Sequence record: MK962753.1
Origin: Shigella phage JK32
Strand: one strand, 5' to 3'
Length of the DNA: 64,000 nt
A model generated the notes under the pieces. The model was given only the letters and a program-made list of their open reading frames with translations. It was not told where the DNA came from and made no database searches. Position 1 is the stretch's first letter; each line of letters begins with the position of its first letter. The translations under genes and the position numbers were made by a program. Below are positions 5,122 through 49,742 of this stretch, piece by piece.

Positions 5122-5132
5122 AATATTATCCT

Positions 5133-5609: not shown

Positions 5610-5624
5610 TTTAGCACCCTTTAT

Positions 5625-5632: not shown

Positions 5633-5664
5633 CATAATACTATTTATCAATTGAGGGTGCTAAA

Positions 5665-6219: not shown

Positions 6220-6230
6220 GGTGATTAATT

Positions 6231-8030: not shown

Positions 8031-8038
8031 GGTAACTA

Positions 8039-19782: not shown

Positions 19783-21183
19783 ATGGCAAACAATACTATT
19801 AACCATGTAAAAGACGATGCTCAATACGTCAAGTTTAACCCTGTAAATGATTGGCCTCAAAGCATTACCAACGTACAAGCGGCTTTAGCCGCTATTAACG
19901 GCTTTGCCGTAAATGGATTACCGGACGCTACGGAAGATACAGCCGGGATCGCTGCAATCGCAACTCAGGAAGAAGTAAACGACGGTACAGTAGACAATAA
20001 GATCGTGACTCCAAAAACACTGGCGGTTAAAAAGTCACGTCCAGATGCCACAAAAGAAGTAAAGGGTATCACCCGATTTGCCACGATGGAAGAATCGCTG
20101 CAAGAGAGCAACGAGAACATGGCAATTGGTCCAGACACACTAAACCATTACTTCACCACTAAAAAGGCGTCAGAGAGCGTTCAGGGGACTATTAAGATAT
20201 GTTCTCTTGAGGCAGCAAAGATTGGCAGTGATGACACAATGGCAGTAACACCGAAAAAGATGCACACTGCCATTGCACAGATTGTACCCGGATTAATTCC
20301 AGATCAAAACACAGCAACCGAAAGCGCACAGGGTTTAGTTCAGTTAGCAACCAATGCGCAAGTTTTACAAGGCCAGATTCGAGAAGGTTTTGCAATTAGC
20401 CCTTATGCATTTGCAAATGCTCGCGCCAATGAGAATCAGGCGGGTACTGTTAAGATCGCCAGCCAGTCACAGATGAATGCTGGTTCAGATGATACTGTAG
20501 TTGTTTCTGCTAAGAAGTTTGCAAGCACTAAGGCAACAACGTCTCAATACGGTATTGTTAAACTACGAGACACCGTAGGAAGTGAGGCTAACGCTGCACT
20601 ATCAGCAAATGCTAAGGTTCTTCCTAGCACTGGCGGTACGGTAAGCGGAAACGTCTATAAAGGTTCTAACTCAGACGGCAACCAGTTTGTTACTAAAAAT
20701 GAATTAGCGAGTCACGCAATGCCAATTGGTGGTATTATCCTTTCTGGATTCAATGCTGATCGCGGTGACTTTCTGATCTGTAATGGTCGTTCACTGAATA
20801 AAAATCAATATCCGCAATTATTTTCTGCGATTGGTTATACCTTTGGTGGTTCAGGTAACAATTTTAACCTTCCTGATATGCGCGGTTTAGTTGCTCGTGG
20901 TTGCGATCATGGAAGAAACTTTGATCCATGCCGTCGATTTGGTTCTTATCAAGAAGACGCAATGCAGAGAATTACTGGTAAATTCCCTGTAGCTGACCGC
21001 TGGCGCGGTTGGTATGGTGGCGCATTTACTGCACAGCGCGGTCAATGGAGCACGAACTATAAAAACGGTGGGGGTGATGATTGGGGTTCTACTGTTAACT
21101 TTGACTCAGGAAGATCCGTAAGAACGGCTAACGAGACTCGCGTCAAGAGTCTGGCATTAAACTACATCATAAGGGTGCGCTAA
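19783..21183 (+). CDS. 12: short tail fiber protein
   Basis: 466 aa; repetitive Ala/Thr/Val-rich N-terminal half; synteny. Confidence 0.7.
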   Translation: MANNTINHVKDDAQYVKFNPVNDWPQSITNVQAALAAINGFAVNGLPDATEDTAGIAAIATQEEVNDGTVDNKIVTPKTLAVKKSRPDATKEVKGITRFATMEESLQESNENMAIGPDTLNHYFTTKKASESVQGTIKICSLEAAKIGSDDTMAVTPKKMHTAIAQIVPGLIPDQNTATESAQGLVQLATNAQVLQGQIREGFAISPYAFANARANENQAGTVKIASQSQMNAGSDDTVVVSAKKFASTKATTSQYGIVKLRDTVGSEANAALSANAKVLPSTGGTVSGNVYKGSNSDGNQFVTKNELASHAMPIGGIILSGFNADRGDFLICNGRSLNKNQYPQLFSAIGYTFGGSGNNFNLPDMRGLVARGCDHGRNFDPCRRFGSYQEDAMQRITGKFPVADRWRGWYGGAFTAQRGQWSTNYKNGGGDDWGSTVNFDSGRSVRTANETRVKSLALNYIIRVR

Positions 21184-22952
21184 TGATTGAACAATTAAAC
21201 ATTCGTAACATTCCTAACGTTGATGGTGTACCGGGCGAAGGCCAACACTCAATCATGTGGATGAAAAATGGTGAATGTTTAAGCGCAGCAACTACCCAGA
21301 CTGGTCATGACGGTACGCTTAACCGCGTACCTTATGCTATTCAGGAAAACGTTGTTCGCTTAGACGAAAACGCTAAAACAACTAAGACAAAAATTAATGA
21401 GATCGTAACTGCCGTTAATGACATTAAAACGACTTTAGGTGCAATCGGTGACGGTAGCGTTATTGATATTGTAAACCAAACAATCGAACATGTCAATGCA
21501 GTCGAGGAAAACTTAGGAGAAACCGCAAGAACTCTCCAGACTGCCGTAACTGGTCTGGAAGGTGTTCAAATCAAGATCGGTGTTCGTCCAGCAGCAGATC
21601 CGAGCACACGAACGATCTATGATGATATTTCCTTCATTAAACAGGAGATGGGTGCATATCCGGGATTTAACATCAACGGACAGCCGGAAGCAGATAACTC
21701 CGGTTCTGGTATGAAATATCGTTTAATGCAGAATACAGCAGCATTAAACAACCACGGTCAACGAATCTCCCAATTAGAAAGCGATTGGCAAGATTCTGAT
21801 GTGGGCGATCTGACCGAGAAGGTAAACAAATTTCGTAGCGAACTAGGCGACACTTCCCTAGCCACACAGGATAATGTTTATCTTCGCTTGCGTACCAATA
21901 CCCGCAATATTGCTAACTTATCAAATGAAGTCTTAGAAGTCAAGAAAGCAATTTTATTCGATGCGGTTCCTGATATCGGGACGAAAGTAACAAACCTTAC
22001 TGCAAACTTTGACCGTTTAGACAGTGAAGTCAACGGCGTAGATTCTGGTATTCGTCCGCGACTGACGGCAATCGAAAATAAAATTGGCAATCCTCAAGCC
22101 GCAGGAAGTCTTGATTATCGTTTAACTAATCAGGAACGAGAATTTAATGACCTGAAAGTTACAGTTGGTGTTAGTGGCGCAGATGGCCTACGCGGTGAAG
22201 TTGCACGGTTGACTAACCAGATCGGGACCGACGTTGATCGTCATACTATCGCCGGACGAATCAAGATTATCGAAAACACACAAGGCCGTTTAGAAGCAAG
22301 TGTCCAGGACATTGAGCAAATGGTAGGCAATGCGCAATCCGGTATTGTCGCTGGTGTGATGAAACTGTCAACTGATATGTATGGTGATCCACAAGGCGCT
22401 GATCAGTTTACTCAAGATGGTATTGTGAAAACTGTCAAGGCGATCCAAAAATCTGATGCTGGTAAAGTCTCCGATGTTCCTGATGATGGGTATCATTATC
22501 TGCGTAAACACGGTGAATGGGTACAAGTGGCATATGCGGCGGGGGCATTCAAAAACACTACCGATATTACACTAGAACTTGATGCACAAGACACATACAA
22601 GGGTATTCCTTTGACGGACATGACCGCAGAAGTTCCGGTACGTCAGATGGTTAAAAGCGATTCGCTGGTTACTGTACAGGATAAAGGTTTATTCCGTTGT
22701 GTATTCCGCACATCGATTCACGCACAGCATAATGCTACCTTCGTGGTCGGTATTTTCAAAAACGGGCAAATTGTGCACGAGGTAAGAAATGGTCATTATG
22801 GAACTGATGAATTAATTAGCTATTCTACCAGTGCTTTCCTAAATATTGAAAAGGGCGACCGGATCGATATTCGTATTAAGGGTGTATCCGAAGAAGCATT
22901 AGCGCAACCGCTACAAATTAAAGAGTTCCTCTTTGGAATTTCTCCGGTATAA
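21183..22952 (+). CDS. wac: fibritin (whisker) with foldon-like motif and extra C-terminal domain
   Basis: 589 aa; long coiled-coil region; foldon-like GYHYLRKHGEWVQV followed by about 130 further residues. Confidence 0.65.
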   Translation: MIEQLNIRNIPNVDGVPGEGQHSIMWMKNGECLSAATTQTGHDGTLNRVPYAIQENVVRLDENAKTTKTKINEIVTAVNDIKTTLGAIGDGSVIDIVNQTIEHVNAVEENLGETARTLQTAVTGLEGVQIKIGVRPAADPSTRTIYDDISFIKQEMGAYPGFNINGQPEADNSGSGMKYRLMQNTAALNNHGQRISQLESDWQDSDVGDLTEKVNKFRSELGDTSLATQDNVYLRLRTNTRNIANLSNEVLEVKKAILFDAVPDIGTKVTNLTANFDRLDSEVNGVDSGIRPRLTAIENKIGNPQAAGSLDYRLTNQEREFNDLKVTVGVSGADGLRGEVARLTNQIGTDVDRHTIAGRIKIIENTQGRLEASVQDIEQMVGNAQSGIVAGVMKLSTDMYGDPQGADQFTQDGIVKTVKAIQKSDAGKVSDVPDDGYHYLRKHGEWVQVAYAAGAFKNTTDITLELDAQDTYKGIPLTDMTAEVPVRQMVKSDSLVTVQDKGLFRCVFRTSIHAQHNATFVVGIFKNGQIVHEVRNGHYGTDELISYSTSAFLNIEKGDRIDIRIKGVSEEALAQPLQIKEFLFGISPV

Positions 22953-35637: not shown

Positions 35638-37224
35638 ATGAAAACTACCAAAGAACTGATGGAAAAATGGTCTCCGCTGCTGGAAAACGAAAAACTGCCG
35701 GAGATTGCAACCGCATCTAAACAGAAACTGGTTGCTAAAATTCTGGAATCTCAGGAAGCAGATTTTGCAGTAGATCCGATTTATAAAGATGAGAAAGTAG
35801 TAGAAGCGTTTGGTGGCTTTATCACCGAAGCAGAAGTTGCTGGCGACCACGGTTACGATGCTTCCAAAATTGCCGCAGGTCAGACTACTGGCGCAATCAC
35901 CAACGTAGGTCCGGCTGTTATCGGTATGGTTCGTCGTGCTATCCCTAACCTGATCGCATTTGACATTTGCGGCGTTCAGCCGATGAGCACCCCGACTAGC
36001 CAGATCTTTGCAATCCGTTCCGTATATGGTGGCGATCCGCTGAAAGAGGGTGCTAAAGAAGCATTCCATCCGATGTATTCCCCGGATGCGTTCCATAGCT
36101 CTCTAGCTGCTAAAGATGCAACCGCTGCTAACCCGGTAGGTACTGCATTCGCTAAACTGACTATGAATACTGCAATCAATGGAGGTGATATTGTTCATCA
36201 CACCTTTGCAGAAACTGGTATTGCATATCTGCAAAACGTAAGCAGTCAGGCTGTTACCCCGTCTAAACAGGGTCAGGAATCCGACGATGAAGCAGTAATG
36301 AAACTGATCGAAGAAGGCAAACTGGCTGAAATCGCACACGGTATGGCTACTTCCATCGCGGAACTGCAAGAAGGCTTTAACGGTTCCCAGAATAACCCGT
36401 GGAACGAAATGTCAATGCGTATTGACAAACAGGTTGTTGAAGCGAAATCTCGTCAACTGAAAGCCCGTTATTCTATCGAAGTTGCTCAGGATCTGCGTGC
36501 TGTACACGGTATGGACGCTGACGCCGAATTGAATGCTATCCTGGCTAACGAAGTTCTGCTGGAAATCAACCGTGAAATCGTTGACGTAATCAACTTTACC
36601 GCTCAGGTTGGTAAGACTGGCATGACTCAGACCGTTGGTTCTAAAGCTGGTGTATTCGATCTGCAAGATCCGATTGATACCCGTGGTGCTCGTTGGGCTG
36701 GTGAATCCTTCAAATCTCTGATCTACCAGATTGACAAAGAAGCTGCTGAAATCGCTCGTCAGACTGGTCGCGGTGCTGGTAACTTCATTATCGCTTCCCG
36801 TAACGTTGTAAACATTCTGGCTTCTGCTGATCAGGGTATTAGCGTAGCAATGCAGGGCGCTGCTCGTGGTCTGAATACCGACACCACTAAAGCTGTTTTC
36901 GCTGGTGTTCTGGCTGGTAAGTATAAAGTATTCATCGACCAGTATGCTCGTCAGGACTACTTCACCGTAGGTTACAAAGGCGACAACGAAATGGATGCTG
37001 GTATCTACTACGCACCGTATGTTGCTCTGACTCCGCTGCGTGCAACTGATCCGCAGTCTTTCCACCCGGTTCTGGGCTTCAAGACTCGTTACGGTATCGG
37101 TATTAACCCGTTTGCTGATAGCAAGTCTCAGTATCCGAGTGCTCGTATCACTTCCGGTATGTTGAGCAAAGAAAGCGTAGGTAAAAACGCTTACTTCCGC
37201 CGCGTATGGGTGAAAGGTTGCTAA
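35638..37224 (+). CDS. 23: major capsid protein
   Basis: 528 aa; long stretches near-identical to T4 gp23 (e.g. RRAIPNLIAFDICGVQPM, GMATSIAELQEGFNGS, GIYYAPYVALTPLR); T4-biased codon usage. Confidence 0.95.
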   Translation: MKTTKELMEKWSPLLENEKLPEIATASKQKLVAKILESQEADFAVDPIYKDEKVVEAFGGFITEAEVAGDHGYDASKIAAGQTTGAITNVGPAVIGMVRRAIPNLIAFDICGVQPMSTPTSQIFAIRSVYGGDPLKEGAKEAFHPMYSPDAFHSSLAAKDATAANPVGTAFAKLTMNTAINGGDIVHHTFAETGIAYLQNVSSQAVTPSKQGQESDDEAVMKLIEEGKLAEIAHGMATSIAELQEGFNGSQNNPWNEMSMRIDKQVVEAKSRQLKARYSIEVAQDLRAVHGMDADAELNAILANEVLLEINREIVDVINFTAQVGKTGMTQTVGSKAGVFDLQDPIDTRGARWAGESFKSLIYQIDKEAAEIARQTGRGAGNFIIASRNVVNILASADQGISVAMQGAARGLNTDTTKAVFAGVLAGKYKVFIDQYARQDYFTVGYKGDNEMDAGIYYAPYVALTPLRATDPQSFHPVLGFKTRYGIGINPFADSKSQYPSARITSGMLSKESVGKNAYFRRVWVKGC

Positions 37225-37305
37225 TCCACTTTAATTAATCCGGTCGGGTGCAATGCCCGACTTATATGTAAACTTGATAGTGTAGTTACTAAAAGTTTTC
37301 TTTAA

Positions 37306-37336
37306 GGGAGATCCGAAAGGGTCTCCCTTTTCTTTT
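37306..37336 (+). terminator. rho-independent terminator after gene 23
   Basis: GGGAGATCCGAAAGGGTCTCCC hairpin followed by TTTTCTTTTG. Confidence 0.6.
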
Positions 37337-37351
37337 GTCTAAAAAACACAT

Positions 37352-37359
37352 TATAAATA
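37352..37359 (+). promoter_or_regulatory. T4-type late promoter TATAAATA
   Basis: Exact octamer about 38 nt upstream of ORF 37397. Confidence 0.55.
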
Positions 37360-37396
37360 AGATTGCAAGCCTATATTCTAAGGGGAGCGAAAATAG

Positions 37397-37705
37397 ATGC
37401 ACACACTTATAAAGACCAAAACTCCCGCCGTGTCTGCACCAATTAGCTGCATTCATAGTACCCATATGACGGTACAAATGACAGTTGAAAGTGCTGTACA
37501 AGGGCAAAAAGTTGTCGCAGAGGCTGTTTTAGAAGGTTCTCTCGATGGCAAAGGTTGGTTCACTATTTCAGAATTGAAAGCTGATGGTAATGAATATGCA
37601 ACTGATGGTGGAGCGTTTGAAACATTATGGTCATTTATTCGGGCTAAGGTAAAATCATTATCCAATGGTTCTACCGTAAATGTGTATCTTGCGAAACGGG
37701 GGTAA
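37397..37705 (+). CDS. hypothetical small beta-rich protein (insert gene 1)
   Basis: 102 aa; AAGGGGAG RBS; downstream of the late promoter. Confidence 0.4.
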   Translation: MHTLIKTKTPAVSAPISCIHSTHMTVQMTVESAVQGQKVVAEAVLEGSLDGKGWFTISELKADGNEYATDGGAFETLWSFIRAKVKSLSNGSTVNVYLAKRG

Positions 37706-37708
37706 TGC

Positions 37709-39427
37709 ATGAAGCTAAATCCAGATGCGGTTATTAATGCTGGTTCTGTTGGCGGTGGTACTGGTTCCGGCGGTGGTGGTATTCAGGTCGGAACTAATGT
37801 ACCATGCGGAATTAAAAATACTCATCGTTTCGAAAATGAAGCTGAACGAGACGCATATTTTACCACTAAATTTGCGGAATTGGATCGCCTAAAAACAATT
37901 ATTGTTTGCGGTGGTAAACTTCAATTGTGGACAGGTGCGACTGCCGCATCACCTTATGATAATACCAAATGGGTCGATATGACCTGGGTAATTCAAGGAG
38001 AACAGGGTACTACTGGTGAAAAAGGCGAGAATGGACGAGGTATTGCCAGAATTGAAGCGCAAATCTCTGATGATGATCGCGAATGGAAACTAGAAATTAC
38101 CTACTCAGATTCTACCACAGAAACATTAACTTTCCCTGTACCTGATGTGTTAGCTAATGTTGCGCAACGTCTTACTGCATTAGAGGTAAGATGGACAGCA
38201 ACTGGTCAGCCAGTTAATAACCTTGATGCGACTGTAGATCAGGGTCGTTATCCGGTTGGAGATAACACATACGGTAAGCCACCAATGATGGCAAATAAGG
38301 GGTCTGCTGATGTATATGTCATTGAGGGTAGCATTATTCAAGTGGTTCGTTCTATTGACGGTGGCGTGTACTCTCGTATCCGACACAACGGTCATTGGAG
38401 CGAGTGGGTCTCGCAAAGTGGCGGTGGAAATGGTAGCGGTGGAGGCTTGACGGGTGATCAAGAAGCTATGTTAACTAGCTTAGTTAATCGTCTACCGGAA
38501 ATTTCACCAAATACACGCGATCTTAACACTCTACAGAAGCAAGGTCGTTTCTGTTATGATGAACGTACTACAAACCGCCCTAATGGTACTCAGGTACACG
38601 GGTCGGTAGATGTTCATGCTTGCAAAGATCATGTATTACAAATCGCAACCAGTCTCGATGGTGTCATGTCACATCGCGCACTGGACAAAGCAAACGGTAC
38701 ATGGTCTGAATGGTTGCAGATAAGCGATCATACTGGTGGGGCTACGATTTACGCGTTTCCTAGAGTTTCTAGTGTATTCACCACTTCGCAAAACTTGATT
38801 GAAGTCACAAAACCGGGCGCTGGATTCTTTTATATTCCGTGGAAATATGTTATTCATGATAACTATGGATGCACTCCACAGATCCAACACCCAGACCGTC
38901 AACAAGATGCGGATCATTGGTGGGTATGCCCGAAATCCGGTAGCTATGACATGGAATTATTGCTTGATATGAGTTTTATCAAGACACAAGCAACTATTCC
39001 GGTTCTTGCTGCTGTAACGGCATGGCACAGGAAAGCAGACGGAAGCGAGACAGAAGCCGCACGTTATCAAATCCCGTTTGATGTTACCCAGAAAAACCAG
39101 AAAACAAGATCCGCTAAACTCCGCATTAATAATTTGCCATCCGGCGAGATGATCCGCTGGCAGGTAAAACTCAGTGGTTATAGCTGGAGCGAAACTGATA
39201 ACCCAGACGTAGCATTTGCACCCTTCCGCACTATGCTGATGGTCGATGAAGCAGAATACGACACAGCAAAACGAATTGGTGCTCTTGCGTTCAATACATG
39301 GGCTAACTTCCATGCGAAAAAAGGTTTTGCTGCCGCTGTAAGTGAGGACGAAAATCAGAAAGCACGTCTTAACGCCGTTAAATGGGGTGCTGTCATTGAA
39401 TCCGTCCAAGCTCAGTCACAACCATAA
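37709..39427 (+). CDS. putative fiber-like protein with Gly-rich linkers and a short collagen-like motif
   Basis: 572 aa; GGGTGSGGGGI and GGGNGSGGGL linkers; five G-X-Y triplets (GEQGTTGEKGENGRG). Confidence 0.4.
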   Translation: MKLNPDAVINAGSVGGGTGSGGGGIQVGTNVPCGIKNTHRFENEAERDAYFTTKFAELDRLKTIIVCGGKLQLWTGATAASPYDNTKWVDMTWVIQGEQGTTGEKGENGRGIARIEAQISDDDREWKLEITYSDSTTETLTFPVPDVLANVAQRLTALEVRWTATGQPVNNLDATVDQGRYPVGDNTYGKPPMMANKGSADVYVIEGSIIQVVRSIDGGVYSRIRHNGHWSEWVSQSGGGNGSGGGLTGDQEAMLTSLVNRLPEISPNTRDLNTLQKQGRFCYDERTTNRPNGTQVHGSVDVHACKDHVLQIATSLDGVMSHRALDKANGTWSEWLQISDHTGGATIYAFPRVSSVFTTSQNLIEVTKPGAGFFYIPWKYVIHDNYGCTPQIQHPDRQQDADHWWVCPKSGSYDMELLLDMSFIKTQATIPVLAAVTAWHRKADGSETEAARYQIPFDVTQKNQKTRSAKLRINNLPSGEMIRWQVKLSGYSWSETDNPDVAFAPFRTMLMVDEAEYDTAKRIGALAFNTWANFHAKKGFAAAVSEDENQKARLNAVKWGAVIESVQAQSQP

Positions 39428-39439
39428 TGGGGGTGTATA

Positions 39440-40363
39440 GTGGAACATACAGGAAAAAGGTTGCTAGATCTTAGAAATGGTTTTAATCAGGGTGAAATCA
39501 CAGAAATCACTGGTATGCCAGCTAGTGCTCTCATGGAGGCAGACGTAGGCCGCATATCTAATCAAATCAACACCGAACTAATTGATCCGGTGATTGATTT
39601 TATTATTGCTTGCGATGAAGTTATCGCAAATGCAGCCGAGGATGCTTTAAACAAAGCCGAGAGCGCCGAGAGTATGGCAGAAGTCGCAGACCGAACGGCA
39701 GGTCAATCTATGAGCAAGGCAACCGATGCTCTAGACAAAGCGACGACCGCAGAATCGGAAGCAGGGCGAGCGCATGATCGCTTAGACAAGTTGAACATTC
39801 CACAAATCCCGAACTTAGACGGGCACACATGGAATTGGCTACCACGTTCTTTCGATAGCGTGTCTATTCAGTTGGGAAGCGGTATCACATTAGTTGATCC
39901 AGTGAACGGCAAGCCTCACATTACATGGACACCAATTAGACAGAACTACGAGACAGGAAGATATTACATCGAGGGTCGTTTTGAAGCCAGATTTAAAGTA
40001 ATGTTAATGGACTGGATTCAACAATCATCCGGTGGTCATATTTTCTATCTAGGTGGTGGTCAAAGTCTGGCATCATTTAACGGACGCGTGTCACTGGTGA
40101 ATATCTCGAATGATATAATGAAGCCGACTAATATACAAGTCAACGCATACACTGCCAAAGATACTCAGGTTATTTTCGGTGCGTGTGCTGATGCGGCAAT
40201 TTCAACATCAAGGGAAGTTAAACTAGCTTTCATGGTTGATACTGGAACAGATAAATTTGACCGATATAATGATCCTGTATATGTTGATTTGGTAATGACA
40301 TTCCAACGCGACGGGGAAGGAAATTTCGGATTCGGAAATCTTTTCCCAAGCCTAAATCCTTGA
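39440..40363 (+). CDS. putative fiber/decoration protein (N-terminal domain shared with the 614-aa ORF)
   Basis: 307 aa; N-terminal 90 aa alignable with ORF 40421 (LIDPVIDFIIACDEV vs LITPVIDFINECDNI). Confidence 0.4.
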   Translation: MEHTGKRLLDLRNGFNQGEITEITGMPASALMEADVGRISNQINTELIDPVIDFIIACDEVIANAAEDALNKAESAESMAEVADRTAGQSMSKATDALDKATTAESEAGRAHDRLDKLNIPQIPNLDGHTWNWLPRSFDSVSIQLGSGITLVDPVNGKPHITWTPIRQNYETGRYYIEGRFEARFKVMLMDWIQQSSGGHIFYLGGGQSLASFNGRVSLVNISNDIMKPTNIQVNAYTAKDTQVIFGACADAAISTSREVKLAFMVDTGTDKFDRYNDPVYVDLVMTFQRDGEGNFGFGNLFPSLNP

Positions 40364-40368
40364 TCCTA

Positions 40369-40400
40369 TTGTCGGGGAGAAATCCCCGACAACGTTTTCT
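40369..40400 (+). terminator. rho-independent terminator / attenuator
   Basis: TTGTCGGGGAGAAATCCCCGACAA hairpin followed by CGTTTTCT. Confidence 0.5.
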
Positions 40401-40420
40401 AATATCAACGAGGATATGAT

Positions 40421-42265
40421 ATGTTAAGAAACCGTGCAATCAAGTCAACCCCTAATTTCATTCAAGGGGATATGGGAAATATTACCTCAAGAGATAATCA
40501 TGCATTAATGGAGCATGATATTCCAACAATCTCTGACACAATTAACAGGGATCTAATTACACCAGTAATTGATTTTATCAACGAATGCGATAATATTCTA
40601 CTCGATGGAATCGGGACGGTCGCAGATACTGTTGATATTATCGAACGGAAAGCTGATAATGCAACCGAAATTTCTAATTACGCCAGTGAAAAAGCTATCG
40701 AGGCATTGGCAAAATCAAAAGAAAGTTTGACGAAAGCGGAAGAAGCAAACACGGTAGCAAATAGTGTTGCTGGTGATGCGCAAACAGCATTAACTAAAGC
40801 TAATGAGGCTAAAACGCTAGCAGAAAGTCTTAAAACAAAAGTTGATGGTTATGACACCAGAATCACAGAAATTGATTCTAAGGCAACTACAGCTCAATCT
40901 GACGCGTCTTTAGCAAAAGATAAAGCTGATGCACTGGAAACAACGGTCAATAGCGAGAAAACTAAACTGACAGCATTGACTACTAAGGTCGATACTCTAG
41001 AAGGTGATATTATCGATGCTGTGGATCTGGCTGAACAAGCAAAGAATAAAGCCGATTCAGTAGAAACACAAGCCATTAATAACACCACAGAGATTACCGC
41101 TTTAAAAGGCCGTGTATCAACTGTAGAGACACAATCAGCAGAAGCCAATAGACTGGCTACCCAAGCCGATAAAAATGCGTCTACGGCGCTCTCAGACGTT
41201 TCTACGTTATCTTCAAAGGTTGATGATGTTAAGGCTACAGCCGACGCAGCAAGCGCAAGCGTGGCGGGATTAACTCAGGATATCGGAGAAGTGCGGACAC
41301 TGGCAGAAACAGCCACGACAAACATCACAACTCTTTCCGGTAAAGTTGATACCATAAAGACAACCGCAGATACAAACAAGACCAATATTGAAGCATTAAC
41401 CACTCAGGTTAATGAACACACAACTAAGATCGGAGAGTTGGAAACTGGTGTATCTAACGTTAATGGTGAACTTACCACGGTTCAGGAAACCGCAGCTAAT
41501 GCACTTCAAAAGGCCACCAGCGCAGAAACAAAGGCAGGTAATGTAGAGACACTAATTAATAGTCTTACACCGCGTGTGGACGCGTTAGAAGGCGATTTAG
41601 GTACATTAGAGAGCACTGTTGCTGATTTATCTCCTAAAGTGACAGCAGCAACCGAAAAAGCGACTATGGCATTCAACAAAGCAACTGCCTTAGAGCAAAA
41701 AACGGAATCGATGGAAACAGAAATCGAAGATGTTCGCCTCGATGCTGGGACCGCGATGGCAGAAGCGACACAAGCTAATAGTGAGATCGCCACGTTAAAA
41801 ACTAAAGTCGGTGAACTGGAAAGCGATGTTGACACAGCCGATACAATCGCAAATGAAGCATTAGCAGTTGCACAAAGGGCGGATACTAATGCAAATACAG
41901 CCAATACAAATCTTGCAACGATAACACCAATCGTGGAAAGATTGAATGGTGCATTTGTCGGTATGATTCGAATCAGATACAAGGAAACTCGAACTATAAC
42001 GAAAGCTGGCGGCAACACTCGTCGTAAGTTGATAATCCCACAAGTTCGAAAAGGTGATATGGCATTTGCGGCATTTTTAAACGTACCAGATAAACGAGAT
42101 AGTATTCTGTTTAACTGTATGATTCCTGTCGACGGCGAAGTTCACATGGCAATAAAAAATCTGCATACCGCTGCATTAGATTTTAACGATTGGGTTCAAA
42201 TATTGGTATTCCAGACAAGTACGGGTAATCCTATTGTTGACCCAGAAACAAGCCTAACAAACTAA
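40421..42265 (+). CDS. putative coiled-coil fiber protein with tandem repeats and distinct C-terminal domain
   Basis: 614 aa; about 400 aa of repetitive Ala/Thr/Glu-rich heptad sequence; N-terminus paralogous to ORF 39440. Confidence 0.45.
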   Translation: MLRNRAIKSTPNFIQGDMGNITSRDNHALMEHDIPTISDTINRDLITPVIDFINECDNILLDGIGTVADTVDIIERKADNATEISNYASEKAIEALAKSKESLTKAEEANTVANSVAGDAQTALTKANEAKTLAESLKTKVDGYDTRITEIDSKATTAQSDASLAKDKADALETTVNSEKTKLTALTTKVDTLEGDIIDAVDLAEQAKNKADSVETQAINNTTEITALKGRVSTVETQSAEANRLATQADKNASTALSDVSTLSSKVDDVKATADAASASVAGLTQDIGEVRTLAETATTNITTLSGKVDTIKTTADTNKTNIEALTTQVNEHTTKIGELETGVSNVNGELTTVQETAANALQKATSAETKAGNVETLINSLTPRVDALEGDLGTLESTVADLSPKVTAATEKATMAFNKATALEQKTESMETEIEDVRLDAGTAMAEATQANSEIATLKTKVGELESDVDTADTIANEALAVAQRADTNANTANTNLATITPIVERLNGAFVGMIRIRYKETRTITKAGGNTRRKLIIPQVRKGDMAFAAFLNVPDKRDSILFNCMIPVDGEVHMAIKNLHTAALDFNDWVQILVFQTSTGNPIVDPETSLTN

Positions 42266-42294
42266 TTAATTTCATCAACTATAGGGGAATTAAC

Positions 42295-42447
42295 ATGAGC
42301 AAGAAAAAAGATAGCTATGTTCAAATTACCAAGAAACAGTATGATGAATTAATGTTAGCGGTGGCCTATGCCATAATGCGATCTGATTTGGCGATCCAGC
42401 AAATCGAAAAGACAAATAAAAGTCTTGAGAATGTAGCAGCAAATTAA
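42295..42447 (+). CDS. hypothetical small protein (50 aa, below the ORF-track cutoff)
   Basis: Read by eye: AGGGGA RBS, ATG at 42295, MSKKKDSYVQITKKQYDELMLAVAYAIM..., stop at 42445; followed by terminator. Confidence 0.3.
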   Translation: MSKKKDSYVQITKKQYDELMLAVAYAIMRSDLAIQQIEKTNKSLENVAAN

Positions 42448-42453
42448 TTTTTT

Positions 42454-42485
42454 GGGGAATCCTTAACTGGATTCCCCTTTCTTTT
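42454..42485 (+). terminator. rho-independent terminator
   Basis: GGGGAATCCTTAACTGGATTCCCC hairpin followed by TTTCTTTT. Confidence 0.6.
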
Positions 42486-42492
42486 ATAAATA
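42485..42492 (+). promoter_or_regulatory. T4-type late promoter TATAAATA
   Basis: Exact octamer about 38 nt upstream of gene 24. Confidence 0.55.
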
Positions 42493-42530: not shown

Positions 42531-43772
42531 ATGGCACAGATTTTCAATGAACTGTTAAAGGAATCGACTTCCTCAGTAGCAAACCAGACAGCAAGACCAC
42601 AATTATTGGCACTTACCCGCGCGGTTAACAACCTGATTTTCTCCGATCTGGTGGCAATTCAGCCAACAAATCAGCCTATTTGTGCATTATTCGGACTTCG
42701 TTATGTTAACCGTGATGGTCAAATGACTTATCGTACCGCAGGAACGTATGGTGGTGCGGCTGGTAATCGTGATGTTTTTGAAGATTTTCAGAAAGATAAA
42801 GAATATCAGGTCGGTGATCATTTCAAATTTGATAATGTTGTATATGAAGTGATTACAGAAGGTGCAGTAGGACAGGATATTTCTACCGAAGAAGAAGCGA
42901 TCTTTAAGGGAGTAGTGTCAAATAAAATTCGTTTCTTTAGTGATTATGCACCGACTGAATATTTCGAAGATGCAAACACTGAAATTTCTACTACCGATTT
43001 TGATTTTGAAAAATGGCAAGTTAATGTCGGATCTCGTAAACTGAAAACAGAATTTACTACCGAATTGATGCAAGACCTGGAAGCAAACCAGATGAACTCT
43101 GAAAATACCGTTTTGGATCTTCTTGCTACCGTTGCATCCGAAGAAATCAATAAAGATATTATCCAGAAACTGATTACGGTATCAACTCGTTATAAAGTTA
43201 AGAGCATTACACCTGATGGCGTTCTTTCACTGGTTAACGTTCAGGACGCACCAGCACAAGCGCGTGAACTTTATCGCTATGCATGTGAAATGAGTAATCA
43301 AATGCTTCGCACTTCGTCTTTCGGTGGTACTTATGTTCTTGCATCTTCTCGTGTTGTTGGCCTCCTGCAAGCTAGTGGCTGGATGGAAGAAACTGACAAT
43401 GCACTAAGTGAAGGTCGTTTACGTTGTGGTTTAGAAGTTTATGCGGACACTGTAACCCCGTTTGATTATATGATCGTTGGTTGTAAGCATATGGTTGGTG
43501 ATATGGAGAGCGTAGGTTCTCTGTTCTACTCCCCATATACAGAATCAGACGGAGCGGGTGCATATAAGAGCATCATCGATCCTAATAGCTTCAACCATAA
43601 AGTAGCGATTATGAATAGATATGCTCTTTCTGTCAACCCATACACAACCAAAGCTGATCAAGAAAACAACCAAGTAATCAAGGGTGACGAGTGGGGCAAA
43701 CTTGCCGGACGTTCAGAAATGTCCTACATGCTGGGTATAGAACTGCCACCGCTTGAGATTGACAACGCTTAA
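42531..43772 (+). CDS. 24: head vertex protein
   Basis: 413 aa; N-terminus MAQIFNELLKESTSS...LLALTRAV closely resembles T4 gp24; paralog of gp23. Confidence 0.9.
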   Translation: MAQIFNELLKESTSSVANQTARPQLLALTRAVNNLIFSDLVAIQPTNQPICALFGLRYVNRDGQMTYRTAGTYGGAAGNRDVFEDFQKDKEYQVGDHFKFDNVVYEVITEGAVGQDISTEEEAIFKGVVSNKIRFFSDYAPTEYFEDANTEISTTDFDFEKWQVNVGSRKLKTEFTTELMQDLEANQMNSENTVLDLLATVASEEINKDIIQKLITVSTRYKVKSITPDGVLSLVNVQDAPAQARELYRYACEMSNQMLRTSSFGGTYVLASSRVVGLLQASGWMEETDNALSEGRLRCGLEVYADTVTPFDYMIVGCKHMVGDMESVGSLFYSPYTESDGAGAYKSIIDPNSFNHKVAIMNRYALSVNPYTTKADQENNQVIKGDEWGKLAGRSEMSYMLGIELPPLEIDNA

Positions 43773-45925: not shown

Positions 45926-47167
45926 TTAAGCAGGAGGCGTTTCACGAATGCGTAGAACTCGCTCTAACGTCTCTCGGTCCAGTTTATGGAAATCTTTGGA
46001 CTGATACATGAAACCATTGCGAGATTCCATGCAAGTGCAATCACTATATTTTTCTTCCGCTGCTGCGATCGTCTCCAGATCTTTGGCGTACTTGCTGGTT
46101 GAATAAACTTCTCGGTGACGCCACTCTAAACCAGCCTCATTGAATTTAACAATCTCGTCAAATACCCACCATCCAATATAGATGAATGAAGTTTTGCGCC
46201 ACGGGATCGGGTGCACGTAACGGAACATTTTATGAAGAGATTCAACAACTTCCATTGAACACTTTCTGCTTGTATGTGCTGCAACTTCTACTGTTGCGCT
46301 TTCGATCTGTTGGTATAATTTAGCAACACACCAGAATTTGGCTGTGTCATCGTAAGTAGCACGCTCTTTGAACAGATGACCGTCTGGCATGATAGAAAAT
46401 CCTTCCAGTGCTTCGCCGACCTCACTACCGATCAGAGTCGGTGACGGCTGTCCTTCACGTTGCAAATACCAGTTATGTTTGATAGTCAATTTAGGCATAC
46501 CGCTAGAATCGCCTACAATGTCCTCTGATACAACATAATTAAGTAAGATTTCCTTACCTAGTGCTACGGTCTTTGATTCCACCACATCCTGATCTACGCT
46601 CATTGTAGCCAGCATGATTTTAGTCGATGCACTATCGGCTGAATCTTCCGATTCGCCCCATACTTTGACAGTATACACACCGTTGTTATCTGCTGTAAAT
46701 TCTTGGATCGTGATATCCTGTGTTGTGTCTATAACTTCTTCGCCCTTACTCCAACTATAATGTAGTTCATAGTTGTCTGTTGGAGTCTTCCCGCCAGAGA
46801 ATTTGACGGTTGCGTGTAATTCTACGTCTGTGTGAGTAGGAACATAGAATTGCGGCGGTTCGGTGATCTTAACGATTAATTCAGCTTCTTCCATACGGAA
46901 AACGTCAGATTCTACAGATTCCCCGCTGTCGGTATCTTGTACGGTGACTTTATAGTTACCCGCATTTTCACTTGTTGCACCTGCTACAGTTAGCGTAGCG
47001 GTGTTATTTTCATGCGGTTTGTTGTCTTTTGTCCATGTATAGGACAAATTGCTGGGTAATGGTTCGTCACCTGCTACAGTCGCTGTTAATGTGAAACCAT
47101 CTCCAGCAAGAAAACATCTTTTGTTCGATTTAATTGATACTGTGAAAGCCATATAAAGCCACTCCAT
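45926..47167 (-). CDS. hoc: Hoc-like outer capsid decoration protein (paralog 1)
   Basis: 413 aa; Ig-like repeats; C-terminal YVHPIPWRKTSFIYIGWWVFDEI...ESRNGF matches the T4 Hoc capsid-binding C-terminus. Confidence 0.7.
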   Translation of the reverse strand: MEWLYMAFTVSIKSNKRCFLAGDGFTLTATVAGDEPLPSNLSYTWTKDNKPHENNTATLTVAGATSENAGNYKVTVQDTDSGESVESDVFRMEEAELIVKITEPPQFYVPTHTDVELHATVKFSGGKTPTDNYELHYSWSKGEEVIDTTQDITIQEFTADNNGVYTVKVWGESEDSADSASTKIMLATMSVDQDVVESKTVALGKEILLNYVVSEDIVGDSSGMPKLTIKHNWYLQREGQPSPTLIGSEVGEALEGFSIMPDGHLFKERATYDDTAKFWCVAKLYQQIESATVEVAAHTSRKCSMEVVESLHKMFRYVHPIPWRKTSFIYIGWWVFDEIVKFNEAGLEWRHREVYSTSKYAKDLETIAAAEEKYSDCTCMESRNGFMYQSKDFHKLDRETLERVLRIRETPPA

Positions 47168-47201: not shown

Positions 47202-49742
47202 TTAAAATAGTTGAGTACCATCAACCAGATAACCATTACGAGATTCCAATACATGAGTATTAGAATAGTGATGCAACGAGGCTGCAATAGTCTCGATCTC
47301 GTCCGGGTATTTGGTGTGTTCAAAGTCTTCTAACCAGTTAAGCCCTTCGCGGTTGCAACGGTCAATTTCATCAAGTACCCAATAGCCTTGATACTGGAAC
47401 GAAGTACGACGCCACGGAATCGGGTGTACATAGCGTTTTAATTTCGCGGTAGTAAACACTACACGAACTTTTTCACTATGTTTAACATGTCCTTCGTCGT
47501 CAGTAACTTCTGCATAATAGGTTGCTTGATGTGTCTCCTTGCTAATTTGTTCTTTAGGAATAGTATACACCTTACTATTCGCGCCAGGAATAACAGTATC
47601 TTTACCGCCCTGAATTTTATGCCACTTCCATTGAACTTCTTTTTCATCATCAACGTGTTCGGCATGAGCTTCTAAGGTAATATCCTGTTTCTGTCCTTCT
47701 TTAGCAACCACATCCACCGGATGTTTCAGAATATTGATATTTGAATGATGAGTCATTGTCACTAATGCAGGATTAGATTCAATGGTATTCTCACCAGCCG
47801 TAATTACCGCTGTGTAGCTGCCTACGTCAGACGGTTTTGCGTGATCAATAATCAACACATCTGAATTTGCACCAGGAATAATTTCACCGTCTTTTTTCCA
47901 TTGATATGATGGTTTAATACCAATAGATGTTTGTGCGGCAGCGTGTAACATAATTTTTTCATTATATTTCACATGCGCATCTTGTGGGTGAGTTGTTATT
48001 GCTAGGTCATTTGGAACAACCGTTACATCGTCGGAGATCAACACCCTAACCGCTTCTGACATTTTAGAAACTCGATGTTCACCGAATCCAGCCGATACAC
48101 GGCATGTATAAACGCCAGTAGATGTTAATTGTGCATGATCTTCGCCATATACATTTCGTTGTTCAATTCCTGCTGGGAAAAGATCCTCACCATCTTTAAA
48201 CCAACGGTAACGAACTGGCAAAGCATCATTAGACGTTGCCTTGATGGTAAGCGCCCATTGTCCACCGGAGCGAACTTTAACTGCTTTCGGTTGTACAGTG
48301 ATCTCTAACGTTGCCTTTGAGTTATCAACTGTCACCTGAACTGCATTAGACTCAGCCGAAATTCTGTGATTCTGGATACCCATAGAAACTTTACATTTAT
48401 ATTGACCTTCGTCTGCTTTAGTGATTGAGGAAAAATGCAAAGTTTTAGATGTTTTTCCAGGAATCAACTCATCATTTTTATACCACTGATAATCAAGTTT
48501 ATAATGTTCGTAGTCTGTCTCTGCTTCACAAATAAGAGTTTGTGAGGAACTAACTCGAACATTGGTTAACTGCTGTGGTTGTTGAGTGATTCGAATTGTT
48601 GGCGCAGCACCGACAAGAAGATCCGCTTCTTGTGATTCTGAAACCATATTATCACCGTAAGTCACTTTTGCTTTATATTTCGCCTGATTTAATTCCGCAG
48701 TTGCTGGTGCAATGTGGAGATCTTTATTAGTTGCGCCAACAATTGGTTTAAATTCATCTTCACCATTTTTCTTGATGTACCATTGAACTTTTACTGGTTC
48801 ATAGTTTGTTGCATAATCAACACTGAACAAACCTAAAGCACCAGCACCCACATTTATTGTGAGTGGTTGTTTAGTGAATCGAAAGAACGATCGACCTTCG
48901 ACTGTAACGTGACAATCTTTTGAATAGATCGTTGTTTCTGCTTGACGAACTTCAAGACGCCATACACCCTCGTCTTTTTTCGTGACGTGGGTTATAGTTA
49001 ATGCAGTGCCGTCTTGATCCAACACCATCCTATCGTTGTGAATCCACACATATGATAAAGGACGAGTTTTGTCATCGGTTGTCACCTGTGCTTGTAGTTC
49101 AAGTCTTCCATCTTCTGGAACTGTAACCGCTGATGGGTAATGTTCCTGAATATGAACTTTAGGAGCATCTTTATTTTGTTCCACTACTACAGGACTGATC
49201 CAATAGTGAGAACGTGCATCATCGGTAACAAATACCTTACAAGTATAGTTGCCAAAATCCTCATAACCAACTCGATCTACATGCACGTTTTTTTGACGGA
49301 TTTTATCTGGATTTAACTGAATGTGGTTTTTATACCAAATAGTATCAAATTGCTTGTTATCTTCGATGAACGGAGTAACAAAAATATCCAATTCTTCGCC
49401 TAAACGCTTATAAATGTAGGTCGGAGATTGATCCTGTGGTGCAAGGAAGGTGCGACGTTCAACAAGAATAGGCTTAATATCAACCGATTCAAGCGGATTA
49501 TCTTTCAGCTTAACTTTCGCTGTATACGTGCCGAATTGATCTTGAGTCATTTCAGCAATATACAGAGATTGATCTGGTTCTGCAACCTGATCTGATGGTA
49601 CGCTTTGACCGTTTAGCTTCCATTCTACGATATAGTCTTTAAAATCTGCGGTACTTACTACGAGCTTAAGAACAAGTTCATGTCCTACAGACGCGTAGAC
49701 CGGACCCATAGTTTGATGTAAAATATTGATTTTATCAGACAT
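47202..49742 (-). CDS. hoc: Hoc-like outer capsid decoration protein, expanded (paralog 2)
   Basis: 846 aa; multiple tandem Ig-like segments; C-terminal LKRYVHPIPWRRTSFQYQGYWVLDEI...ESRNGY Hoc-type domain. Confidence 0.7.
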   Translation of the reverse strand: MSDKINILHQTMGPVYASVGHELVLKLVVSTADFKDYIVEWKLNGQSVPSDQVAEPDQSLYIAEMTQDQFGTYTAKVKLKDNPLESVDIKPILVERRTFLAPQDQSPTYIYKRLGEELDIFVTPFIEDNKQFDTIWYKNHIQLNPDKIRQKNVHVDRVGYEDFGNYTCKVFVTDDARSHYWISPVVVEQNKDAPKVHIQEHYPSAVTVPEDGRLELQAQVTTDDKTRPLSYVWIHNDRMVLDQDGTALTITHVTKKDEGVWRLEVRQAETTIYSKDCHVTVEGRSFFRFTKQPLTINVGAGALGLFSVDYATNYEPVKVQWYIKKNGEDEFKPIVGATNKDLHIAPATAELNQAKYKAKVTYGDNMVSESQEADLLVGAAPTIRITQQPQQLTNVRVSSSQTLICEAETDYEHYKLDYQWYKNDELIPGKTSKTLHFSSITKADEGQYKCKVSMGIQNHRISAESNAVQVTVDNSKATLEITVQPKAVKVRSGGQWALTIKATSNDALPVRYRWFKDGEDLFPAGIEQRNVYGEDHAQLTSTGVYTCRVSAGFGEHRVSKMSEAVRVLISDDVTVVPNDLAITTHPQDAHVKYNEKIMLHAAAQTSIGIKPSYQWKKDGEIIPGANSDVLIIDHAKPSDVGSYTAVITAGENTIESNPALVTMTHHSNINILKHPVDVVAKEGQKQDITLEAHAEHVDDEKEVQWKWHKIQGGKDTVIPGANSKVYTIPKEQISKETHQATYYAEVTDDEGHVKHSEKVRVVFTTAKLKRYVHPIPWRRTSFQYQGYWVLDEIDRCNREGLNWLEDFEHTKYPDEIETIAASLHHYSNTHVLESRNGYLVDGTQLF

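Follow-up and report, generated by a model that had tools for sequence, protein, structure and literature searches.

Some phages bear optional fibres on the capsid that help the first contact with the host, as reportedly described by Xiang and Rossmann in 2011. The gp8.5 head fibres of phi29 and the capsid fibres of myophage 7-7-1 and phiCbK are of this kind, being optional and aiding first host contact (PMC12796354). No report of head fibres in T4-like phages was found in the literature searched. The window analysed in this work (the whole stretch of 64,000 nt) comes from Shigella phage JK32, an RB49-like Krischvirus, and contains a group of genes between the major capsid gene 23 and the vertex gene 24. 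As in phi29, 7-7-1 and phiCbK, these genes adjoin capsid genes; attachment of their products to the capsid is suggested here by gene position, and no sequence or fold relation to the head fibres of those three phages was detected. We consider it probable that the region is a self-contained late cassette encoding dispensable accessory virion fibres, which would serve primary binding to the host surface and for which the capsid is the favoured attachment site. A search for proteomic data on JK32, UPWr_E1, G2248, Brandy and SSG23 yielded none. No description of the cassette was found in the literature, and it adds four unannotated protein families, namely the 102-aa protein, the 572-aa protein, the anchor common to the 307- and 614-aa proteins and the tip of the 614-aa protein.

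Hoc and Soc of T4 are dispensable, late and head-associated accessory proteins, and a surface-binding role is assumed for Hoc. In size, the 102-aa protein is comparable to small decoration proteins; however, no Ig, Hoc or Soc domain was found with Pfam in any cassette protein, and JK32 encodes Hoc-like Ig proteins separately from the cassette (45926-47167 and 47202-49742). The coiled coil of fibritin (wac) is segmented by loops. Like T4 fibritin, the 307- and 614-aa proteins are predicted to have a parallel coiled coil as a shaft between an N-terminal anchor and a small C-terminal domain, and they would likewise be accessory, dispensable and, judging by the promoter motif, late. Unlike fibritin, they possess no Fibritin_C domain (PF07921), foldon or N-terminal similarity, the heptads of the 614-aa protein are unbroken and JK32 has a separate wac gene (21183-22952; Fibritin_C, E 1e-25).

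The R-type pyocin and P2-type tail fibres (6CL5, 6CL6, 6CXB) have a tandem knob fold in common with the modelled 572-aa protein. The latter differs from them in the absence of detectable N-terminal attachment homology and in a TNF/C1q-like head in place of the pyocin foot; moreover, the cassette is located in the head-gene block and not beside the baseplate genes, and no recognisable tail-fibre chaperone is encoded downstream. Collagen-stalk trimers of the C1q/TNF type, to which Bacillus BclA also belongs, resemble the modelled 572-aa protein in that their TNF-like jelly-roll head comes after a G-X-Y run, but in the phage protein the collagen run comprises just 4-5 triplets and two knobs are interposed. 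The Sf6-type needle knob is a TNF-like trimer as well.

Organization of the Gene 23-24 Region

In JK32, 5,306 bp separate the stop codon of the major capsid gene gp23 (35638-37224; Pfam Gp23, E 3e-119) from the start of the vertex gene gp24 (42531-43772; Pfam Gp23, E 1e-88). The gap contains a terminator, a late promoter with the TATAAATA motif and ORFs of 102, 572, 307, 614 and 50 aa, all of them lying where the sequence-only reading had placed them. The intrinsic terminator 3' of gene 23 (37304..37339, + strand) is composed of a hairpin (37304-37329; 11-bp stem with six GC pairs) followed by a T-run, and an equivalent of this hairpin is retained in RB49, UPWr_E1, Brandy, G2248, L010 and L011. 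The T4-type late promoter of the cassette, TATAAATA (37352..37359, + strand), is located 45 nt upstream of the 102-aa ORF. The octamer is frequent in the window by chance alone (nine occurrences against 5.6 expected), but all nine copies sit on the late-gene strand. The cassette copy is kept 42-47 nt upstream of the start of the gene (or of its remnant) in 8 of 11 related loci, among them L005, the flanks of which are otherwise diverged, and the RB49 remnant. Such conservation of the promoter motif suggests late expression of the cassette. Each ORF is preceded by a Shine-Dalgarno sequence at a distance of 6-9 nt, and the genes are tightly spaced.

A terminator-like hairpin with a 10-bp stem including six GC pairs is located in the intergenic region of the 307- and 614-aa genes (40369..40392, + strand). 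Because no TATAAATA-like site was found between this hairpin and position 40421, the 614-aa gene is probably reached by read-through. The cassette is closed by a second terminator (42454-42477) and the late promoter of gene 24 (42485-42492), which together occupy 42454..42492 on the + strand. Neither the hairpin at 40369-40392 nor the terminator at 42454-42477 in front of the gp24 promoter had been noticed in the sequence-only reading.

The 50-aa ORF (JK32_00163, PHROG 16600; 42295..42447, + strand) had been counted as a part of the module, but it is present in all Krischvirus and is intact in RB49 despite the loss of the RB49 fibre genes. Since every cassette-less Krischvirus also has it, the ORF is probably not a member of the fibre cassette.

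The 572-aa and 102-aa Proteins

The 572-aa protein (JK32_00160; 37709..39427, + strand) was analysed using an AlphaFold2 model and Foldseek. The model (m03f5423cea3d) represents a monomer with the N-terminal 110 residues left out and has a mean pLDDT of 62; the confidently modelled domains cover residues 112-145, 165-236, 268-340 and 347-530. The Foldseek search matched it to phi812 baseplate chains (E 2e-9) and to the R1 pyocin fibre 6cl5_A (E 6e-8), and weaker E-values were obtained for the P68 tail fibre, the TNF/C1q family and other phage receptor-binding proteins.

The Gly-rich linkers and the collagen-like run first noticed from the letters were both confirmed in this protein. Gly-rich runs are found at residues 13-24 and 241-250, the latter being a linker (38429-38458), and the G-X-Y run GEQGTTGEKGENG(RG) occupies residues 97-111 (37997..38041, + strand). 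Across 20 homologues, G97, G100, G103 and G109 of this run are invariant and G106 and G111 are at least 90% conserved; the X and Y positions are variable. The first, pyocin-knob-like domain (residues 165-236; 38201..38416, + strand) is indicated by an internal repeat and by the fold match to 6cl5, and the second knob (residues 265-340; 38501..38728, + strand) follows the Gly-rich linker and a short helix. The internal repeat aligns residues 155-269 with residues 271-335 and corresponds to the tandem knobs. A profile match of residues 169-237 to the R2 pyocin fibre knob was weak (E about 0.5).

The best-modelled part of the protein (pLDDT 80-91) is a predicted TNF/C1q-like jelly-roll head encompassing residues 341-530 (38729..39298, + strand). 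The whole model matched structures of the TNF family and of C1q domains (FasL, BAFF, APRIL, TL1A and the C1q domain of Caprin-2) over 166-178 columns with target TM-scores of 0.56-0.74, and the length of these matches together with the model confidence suggests that they belong to residues 341-530. The model also matched the binding domain of the cyanophage A-1(L) short tail fibre and, over a longer stretch of 263 columns, the receptor-binding protein of lactococcal phage 1358. No passing Pfam match to Collagen, C1q or TNF was obtained for the protein, and its likeness to these families, as judged from the model, is a resemblance at the level of fold only. The N-terminus gave no tail-fibre N-terminal match in Pfam, NCBIfam or PHROG. 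For three homologues of the protein, Pfam PF27308.1 is precomputed.

The 102-aa protein (JK32_00159, PHROG 16217; 37397..37705, + strand) is a small beta-rich domain with no usable match in Pfam, PDB or NCBIfam. Four fibrous or coiled-coil proteins had been claimed for the region, of which the 572-, 307- and 614-aa proteins look like fibres and the 102-aa protein is not fibrous. Outside the Krischvirus phages that carry the cassette, homologues of the 102-aa protein were confined to Aeromonas phages 31 and 44RR2.8t, where they lie in the same 23-24 slot, and to Pseudomonas Orisa phages. In the Orisa phages, the 102-aa domain forms the N-terminal domain of a GDSL esterase, and this fusion is encoded upstream of a collagen-like protein and a pectate-lyase-type spike, with one small gene between. 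We propose that the 102-aa product is a docking or adaptor subunit.

The 307-aa and 614-aa Coiled-Coil Proteins

The 307-aa protein (JK32_00161; 39440..40363, + strand, GTG start) was modelled as a short coiled-coil fibre consisting of an anchor (residues 15-62; 39482-39625), a helix (residues 27-117; 39518-39790) and a beta-sandwich (residues 135-295; 39842-40324). The helix of ~90 residues is Lpp-like and may be an alanine zipper, and the sandwich shows a weak likeness to pyocin and phage receptor-binding tips, including those of siphophage receptor-binding proteins. Structure prediction, which the sequence-only reading had named as a check for fibre folds, turned out in its favour, with phage and pyocin fibres and TNF/C1q trimers as matches of the 572-aa protein and a helix with a tip-like sandwich in the 307-aa protein.

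The 614-aa protein (40421..42265, + strand) was interpreted as a long coiled-coil fibre from its heptad period and shared anchor. It comprises the anchor (residues 13-65; 40457-40615), the coiled coil (residues 70-505; 40628-41935) and a C-terminal domain (residues 506-614; 41936-42262). A single sharp hydrophobic period of 3.50 residues runs unbroken over ~435 residues of the coiled coil, which corresponds to about 64 nm. The description of this protein as mostly a repetitive coiled coil therefore holds in the heptad sense only, because no DNA tandem repeats were found in the gene.

The N-termini of the two proteins were 37% identical over 116 aa (E 9e-14) and their C-termini differ, in agreement with what had been read from the sequence; the common anchor covers roughly 50 residues. 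The same arrangement recurs in L005, a very divergent version of the cassette, in which the anchor is present on 454- and 982-aa paralogues. The anchor of the 614-aa protein matches L006_303 (52%) and L5_982 (48%) better than it matches the 307-aa protein encoded next to it (37%). The idea that the 614-aa gene arose by recent duplication of the 307-aa gene was rejected, since the anchors nearest to its own lie in the cassettes of other phages. Anchor-profile matches in ~45-kb actinophage contigs were considered spurious: the match in L014, the one inspected, was located inside a tape-measure repeat (LIKPVIDFIVAAF), and the same cause was assumed for the rest.

For the C-terminal domain of the 614-aa protein, no homologue was found in phage records, IMG/VR or JGI metagenomes. 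The HMMER search of this domain against 1.84 billion protein representatives resulted in two weak matches only, to He_PIG and DUF5801 Ig-like repeat giants, so the domain is treated as a beta-rich orphan with only a hint of an Ig-like fold. Searched at full length in a 5.8-billion-protein set, the 614-aa protein did not even retrieve itself, and exact look-ups from three alternative start positions gave no match either; the full-length search had probably been flooded with coiled-coil candidates.

The alanine zipper PF11839 was matched by the 614-aa protein with E 4e-11 (above the cut-off) and by the 307-aa protein with E 0.0045 (below the cut-off), and Lpp-56 in the PDB (E 0.013) and NF040598 were also matched; these are composition-driven coiled-coil matches. 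Spanin, SMC/Rad50 and Lpp lipoprotein readings were discarded as artefacts of coiled-coil composition. Defence cargo was rejected as well: PADLOC matched only the coiled-coil region of the 614-aa protein (JetC and LmuB arms) and none of the other proteins.

The proteins could function outside virions, in an intracellular or post-lysis role, for instance as a scaffold, as a factor in lysis or exclusion, or as decoy adhesins that are released. Such a role would fit the weak coiled-coil matches to Rz-like spanin, XhlA, Lpp and SMC-type profiles and the dispensability of the cassette in most relatives, and the incorporation into virions is itself deduced from gene position. However, these matches are at the level of composition and nearly all of them fall under the curated cut-offs, the exceptions being generic (Tropomyosin, Alanine_zipper and Ala_zip_lipo). 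No ATPase features, membrane segments, signal peptides or lipobox were found in the cassette proteins, and the search with Pfam, PHROG, NCBIfam and PADLOC revealed no enzyme, defence or homing-endonuclease domains. Nor did these databases show the cassette proteins to be related to any non-structural or defence protein; a non-structural relationship had been named in the sequence-only reading as evidence that would count against virion appendages. Collagen runs, knobs, TNF-like heads and Sf6-type knobs typify trimeric fibres that act outside the cell, and the structural-gene neighbourhood and the late promoter motif also argue against a role outside virions, which we regard as improbable.

Attachment Site and Proposed Role

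Alternatively, the cassette might encode virion fibres that sit on the collar, neck or baseplate and serve as additional whisker-like or side fibres, much like fibritin or auxiliary receptor-binding proteins. With a trimer-type coiled coil set between an N-terminal anchor and a small C-terminal domain, the 307- and 614-aa proteins are built like fibritin, and the 614-aa protein is of fibritin length. In structure, the 572- and 307-aa proteins come closest to tail and baseplate fibres, i.e., phi812 baseplate chains, the R-pyocin fibre and siphophage receptor-binding proteins. The anchor, on the other hand, is unlike the N-terminus of JK32 fibritin (hhalign of the anchor profile with wac, E 0.48) and resembles nothing else in the 64-kb late region, baseplate and neck genes included, and the cassette lies in the head-gene block, away from wac/13/14 and the baseplate genes. 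A collar or baseplate location seems unlikely on this evidence, although somewhat less so than a function outside the particle. The capsid is the most likely attachment site because the cassette is placed within the head-gene block (20-24, hoc, inh).

On the accessory-fibre reading, transcription from the late promoter TATAAATA at 37352 would yield a single message for the 102-, 572- and 307-aa genes, and the 614-aa protein would be made by read-through of the weak terminator. The 572-aa protein would form a trimeric fibre with, in order, a conserved N-terminal attachment region, the short collagen-like run, two pyocin-type knobs and the TNF/C1q-like head. The 307-aa protein would give a short trimeric coiled-coil fibre of about 13 nm with a beta-sandwich tip, and the 614-aa protein a long one with the 307-type N-terminal anchor and a different tip. 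The fibres may bind host-surface polymers (O-antigen, capsule or mucus glycans) weakly and reversibly, and in this way improve adsorption to natural hosts or broaden the range of such hosts, while laboratory strains could be infected without them.

A broader and more tentative proposal is that T4-like phages of at least two genera, Krischvirus and Biquartavirus, possess an unrecognised capsid-anchored system, in which the 102-aa adaptor docks up to three kinds of trimeric receptor-binding fibres on the head. One kind might be a collagen/knob/TNF-head fibre; the others might be coiled-coil fibres, 13 to about 100 nm long, that are interchangeable and have a common anchor. Such a system would give the best-studied phage family a layer of host recognition on the head, one that could have been overlooked because RB49 and most laboratory isolates deleted the cassette.

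Accessory fibres are a major means by which phages adjust their adsorption and host range, and the Krischvirus phages JK32, SSG23 and UPWr_E1 are under development for therapy and biocontrol. If the fibres are present on the particle, near-identical genomes with and without the cassette would differ in surface recognition, immunogenicity and possibly adherence to mucus or biofilm, and the design of a shared anchor with swappable tips could serve as a platform for display or retargeting on a T4-type particle.

Ancestry, Loss and Selection

Only collinear remnants of the cassette are kept in 49 of 54 Krischvirus records (RB49 and 48 others). As RB49-type phages hold such remnants, sequence comparison indicates that the 102-, 572- and 307-aa genes are ancestral and were lost by two deletions, and that the 614-aa gene alone is extra relative to the sequenced relatives. 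The module had been described as inserted between genes 23 and 24, which is thus apt for the 614-aa gene and not for the other three. The comparison of the 23-24 junction suggested at that time revealed a fixed slot, since every recovered cassette locus sits between these genes, and a fibre analogue in Aeromonas phages, but the remnants point to deletion instead of insertion. The proposed dispensability on laboratory strains would explain why most isolates retain remnants only, and the RB49 remnants illustrate that reference laboratory phages can under-represent the natural virion. In T4, the space separating genes 23 and 24 is occupied by the homing-endonuclease gene segD. A homing-endonuclease or mobile-element origin of the cassette was rejected, as no GIY-YIG, HNH or other nuclease domain was found with Pfam, PHROG or NCBIfam.

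The loss of the cassette in most relatives and the splitting of the 572-aa gene into two ORFs in Brandy raise the question of whether the JK32 cassette is a functionless leftover decaying towards the RB49-like remnant state. This is very improbable, as all four JK32 ORFs are intact and each of them has a ribosome-binding site. The dN/dS values for the 102-, 572- and 307-aa genes were 0.03-0.16 in comparisons with relatives down to 38% identity (0.11-0.16 for the 102-aa gene and about 0.10-0.13 for the 572-aa gene), therefore indicating long-term purifying selection on real genes. At least 20 distinct 90%-identity clusters with the same architecture were identified in metagenomes. For the cassette genes, dS exceeds the gp23 value several times over, which would be expected of a host-range locus subject to exchange. 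In both families conservation is highest in the N-terminal regions, with mean pairwise identities of 0.72 and 0.80, and a conserved N-terminal peptide reads MKLNPxAVIN.

In Aeromonas phage 44RR2.8t, the 102-aa homologue in the 23-24 slot is followed by a 288-aa protein with the Pfam domains Phage_fiber_rpt and Sf6 needle-knob (Phage_tail_NK), E 4e-27. The N-terminal peptide of this protein resembles that of the 572-aa protein of JK32.

Gene Organization between Genes 23 and 24

JK32, an RB49-like "pseudo-T-even" phage (genus Krischvirus, 176 kb), was isolated on E. coli XL1-Blue, with its morphology given only as T4-like (PMC6832132). Between the major capsid gene (gp23, 35638–37224) and the vertex gene (gp24, 42531–43772), both matching Pfam Gp23, ORF calling confirmed the five ORFs listed in the sequence-only reading. 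They are tightly spaced, each with a Shine-Dalgarno sequence, and code for proteins of 102 aa (37397–37705), 572 aa (37709–39427), 307 aa (39440–40363, GTG start), 614 aa (40421–42265) and 50 aa (42295–42447). Of these, the 102-aa ORF corresponds to JK32_00159, the 572-aa ORF to JK32_00160 (100% identity) and the 50-aa ORF to JK32_00163. By numbering, the 614-aa gene should be JK32_00162; its product was missing from a 15-billion-protein collection (three possible start codons tried), in which JK32_00159, 00160, 00161 and 00163 were present.

The terminator downstream of gene 23 (37304–37329 plus a T-run) and the late promoter TATAAATA of the cassette (37352–37359), both reported earlier, were present. 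A terminator-like hairpin (40369–40392) separates the 307- and 614-aa genes, a third terminator (42454–42477) closes the region and the gene 24 late promoter follows (42485–42492). The TATAAATA octamer occurred nine times in the window against 5.6 expected and so is not rare alone; all nine exact copies were on the + (late-gene) strand (5625, 16437, 29183, 34747, 35598, 37352, 42485, 50573 and 55311). Late structural genes begin just 3' of at least four of them (34747, 35598, 37352 and 42485). The cassette copy was kept 42–47 nt 5' of the first gene (in RB49, of its remnant) in 8 of 11 related loci, among them L005, a metagenomic cassette locus with otherwise diverged flanks. No late-promoter motif was found between the hairpin and the 614-aa start (40369–40420), which implies a lower, read-through expression of this long fibre.

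The Cassette Is Ancestral and Was Lost from RB49-Type Phages

The 102-, 572- and 307-aa genes were found together in only 5 of 50,697 phage records (UPWr_E1, Brandy, G2248, SSG23 and SFHK24), all from Krischvirus and with the order 23, 102, 572, ~310, 50, 24; none of the five carried the 614-aa gene. In RB49 (NC_005066; 3127–3866 of the extracted locus), genes 23 and 24 are separated by 740 bp, and this spacer is a deletion scar. It consists of three segments, in the same order as in the UPWr_E1 cassette and collinear with it. The first comprises the terminator, the late promoter and the opening codons of the 102-aa gene; the second derives from the 572-aa gene (roughly residues 395–450); the third contains the final ~48 codons of the 307-aa gene and continues into the 50-aa ORF. 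The difference between the two phages is explained by a pair of deletions (1.49 and 1.18 kb). These collinear remnants indicate that the 102/572/307 cassette was ancestral and subsequently lost, so the description of these three genes as "inserted" in JK32 does not hold. The loss probably occurred once, in the lineage with RB49, Phi1, JSE and Sf20. Among 54 Krischvirus records matching the 307-aa protein, 49 retained its C-terminal remnant alone, frequently annotated as a small hypothetical protein, which is likely a pseudogene fragment and which we suspect to be PHROG 20809.

In metagenomes (5.8 billion proteins) the cassette was diverse but rare, with 22 and 16 clusters at 90% identity, and always occupied the 23–24 slot. 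The dN/dS values of 0.03–0.16 point to purifying selection on the cassette genes. In dS, the 572- and 307-aa genes (1.4–4.7, saturated) were far above the adjacent gene 23 (0.26–0.39), which suggests allele exchange of the kind typical of host-range loci.

The 572-aa Protein

Twenty homologues of the 572-aa protein, down to 38% identity, could be aligned end to end. The protein contains a glycine run (residues 13–24), a second Gly-rich linker (241–250), an internal repeat (155–269 versus 271–335) and a G-X-Y run (97–111), whose glycines are invariant or nearly so among the homologues, with variable X and Y positions. The AlphaFold2 model (mean pLDDT 62) left the first 110 residues unmodelled and had confident domains at 112–145, 165–236, 268–340 and 347–530. 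A Foldseek search of the PDB matched the model to phi812 baseplate chains (E 2e-9), the R1 pyocin fibre (E 6e-8), the P68 tail fibre and many TNF-family and C1q-domain structures (target TM-scores 0.56–0.74), with further matches to the short-tail-fibre binding domain of cyanophage A-1(L), the receptor-binding protein of lactococcal phage 1358 and a Bdellovibrio fibre. In a profile search, residues 169–237 weakly matched the R2 pyocin fibre knob (E about 0.5). As the Foldseek output came without query residue ranges, the TNF-like matches were provisionally placed at residues 341–530 from match length and model confidence.

We read the protein as a putative trimeric fibre, which would consist of an attachment region, a short collagen run, a small beta domain, a helix, a knob, a linker, a second helix and knob, and a TNF/C1q-like head. 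The fibre folds anticipated in the sequence-only reading were thus recovered in the matches to fibre chains and TNF/C1q structures; the predictions were monomers of moderate confidence, and the trimer is our reading of them. Three homologues (P0008, P0009 and P0011) carried the precomputed accession PF27308.1, missing from the Pfam copy used, so a very recent family may already cover part of the protein. In Brandy (MZ504876; locus positions 3604–5333) the gene is split into two overlapping ORFs with the break near the Gly-rich linker (GGN repeats), reflecting either a slippage frameshift, as early cassette decay, or a sequencing error.

The 307- and 614-aa Coiled-Coil Proteins Share an Anchor

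Residues 13–128 of the 614-aa protein aligned to the N-terminus of the 307-aa protein (37% identity, E 9e-14), in agreement with the shared domain proposed before. Its residues 70–505 displayed one sharp hydrophobic period of 3.50 residues with unbroken register, corresponding to a coiled coil of ~64 nm and upholding the view that the protein is mostly coiled coil. The last ~110 residues are beta-rich, and this C-terminal region had no relatives in any collection searched, save two weak matches to Ig-like repeat proteins. Matches of the cassette proteins to SMC, Rad50, JetC, spanin and Lpp were discarded as effects of coiled-coil composition.

The most divergent cassette, L005 (ena:ERZ27260015:k141_207255, 1503–9061), has genes of 98, 560, 454, 982 and 382 aa, the last three coding for coiled-coil proteins. 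Its 454- and 982-aa proteins share with the JK32 307- and 614-aa proteins an anchor of ~50 residues (F-x-Q-G-E-I…L-M-E-x-D-V…I-N-x-x-L-I-x-P-V-I-D), followed by coiled coils of very different lengths and unrelated C-terminal domains. The pattern of one anchor with different tips, described for JK32, therefore holds there and recurs in L005, and the pairing of a short and a long fibre is found in two distant cassette versions. The anchor is absent from the 382-aa protein, which is similar to the C-terminal portion of the 982-aa one and may be a truncated duplicate.

The 614-aa anchor was closer to those of L006_303 (52% identity) and L5_982 (48%), from other cassettes, than to that of its 307-aa neighbour (37%). 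A recent duplication of the 307-aa gene was accordingly rejected, and the 614-aa gene is either a paralogue of long standing or was acquired from a different lineage of the cassette.

The 102-aa Protein and Its Wider Family

The 102-aa protein is small and beta-rich, with no relative in Pfam or the PDB. Homologues were detected in Aeromonas phages 31 and 44RR2.8t (genus Biquartavirus), there too directly after gene 23. The next gene in these phages encodes a 288-aa protein with Pfam Phage_fiber_rpt and Phage_tail_NK domains, the latter an Sf6-type needle knob (E 4e-27), which is a TNF-like trimer. Its first residues (MILNPKAVLNN…) are weakly similar to those of the 572-aa protein (MKLNPDAVINA…), in the same position (hhalign E 0.015 over 32 residues).

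In Orisa phages of Pseudomonas syringae, a GDSL esterase carries the 102-aa domain as an N-terminal fusion, and 3' of it lie one small gene and then the genes for a collagen-repeat protein and a pectate-lyase-type spike. In enzymes of this type, the N-terminal domain usually serves to bind the particle. By analogy with this fusion, we propose that the 102-aa protein may be a docking or adaptor subunit. In Orisa03 (PP179327), this surface-active cluster (locus positions 6926–11971) follows the lysis genes and encodes the 594-aa fusion, a 134-aa protein, the collagen-repeat protein, whose N-terminus is signal-peptide-like, and the spike; residues ~125–140 of the fusion are similar to the N-terminus of the protein encoded by the following gene.

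Proposed Function and Attachment Site

The cassette was rated as coding for a probable kind of accessory phage fibres. Its modules are of known types (pyocin-type knobs, TNF/C1q heads, collagen runs and alanine-zipper coiled coils), and the anchor-shaft-tip logic is like that of phage fibres and fibritin. Membership in the fibritin, Hoc, Soc, phi29 head-fibre and homing-endonuclease families was rejected, as their defining domains were tested for and not found; in T4, segD lies between genes 23 and 24. No membrane segments or signal peptides were predicted in any of the five proteins, and no enzyme, defence or nuclease domains were detected in them. The literature searched contained no description of the cassette, of the RB49 remnants or of head or auxiliary fibres in Krischvirus.

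The capsid is the favoured attachment site on account of the cassette's position within the head-gene block (20, 67, 68, 21, 22, 23, 24, hoc, inh). A serious rival is attachment at the collar or baseplate, to which the best structural matches, being tail fibres, would point. The anchor had no similarity to JK32 fibritin or any other protein of the 64-kb late region, and the N-terminal region was the most conserved part of both fibre families. Capsid-borne fibres, the favoured case, would be of considerably greater interest.

In the proposed mechanism, both the adaptor-like protein and the fibres would be made from a late transcript starting at 37352, the 614-aa gene being reached by read-through of the hairpin. 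The collagen, coiled-coil and TNF-like modules would hold the fibres together as trimers, the conserved N-termini would serve for attachment, and the distal domains might reversibly bind host-surface polymers, improving the first encounter with natural hosts. On laboratory strains, losing the cassette would carry no cost or be favoured, in keeping with the remnants.

Other Putative Surface Proteins in the Window

Two adjoining Hoc-like proteins with Ig/PKD domains (45926–47167 and 47202–49742, both on the − strand; 413 and 846 aa) adjoin the gene in the inh position, and the cassette-bearing locus L006 has the same pair (411 and 841 aa). The second, double-length protein may be another capsid decoration. 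The fibritin (wac) homologue (21183–22952, + strand, 589 aa) has ~140 beta-rich residues C-terminal to its Fibritin_C domain, whose end lies near residue 451; this extension could provide the whiskers with an additional tip domain.
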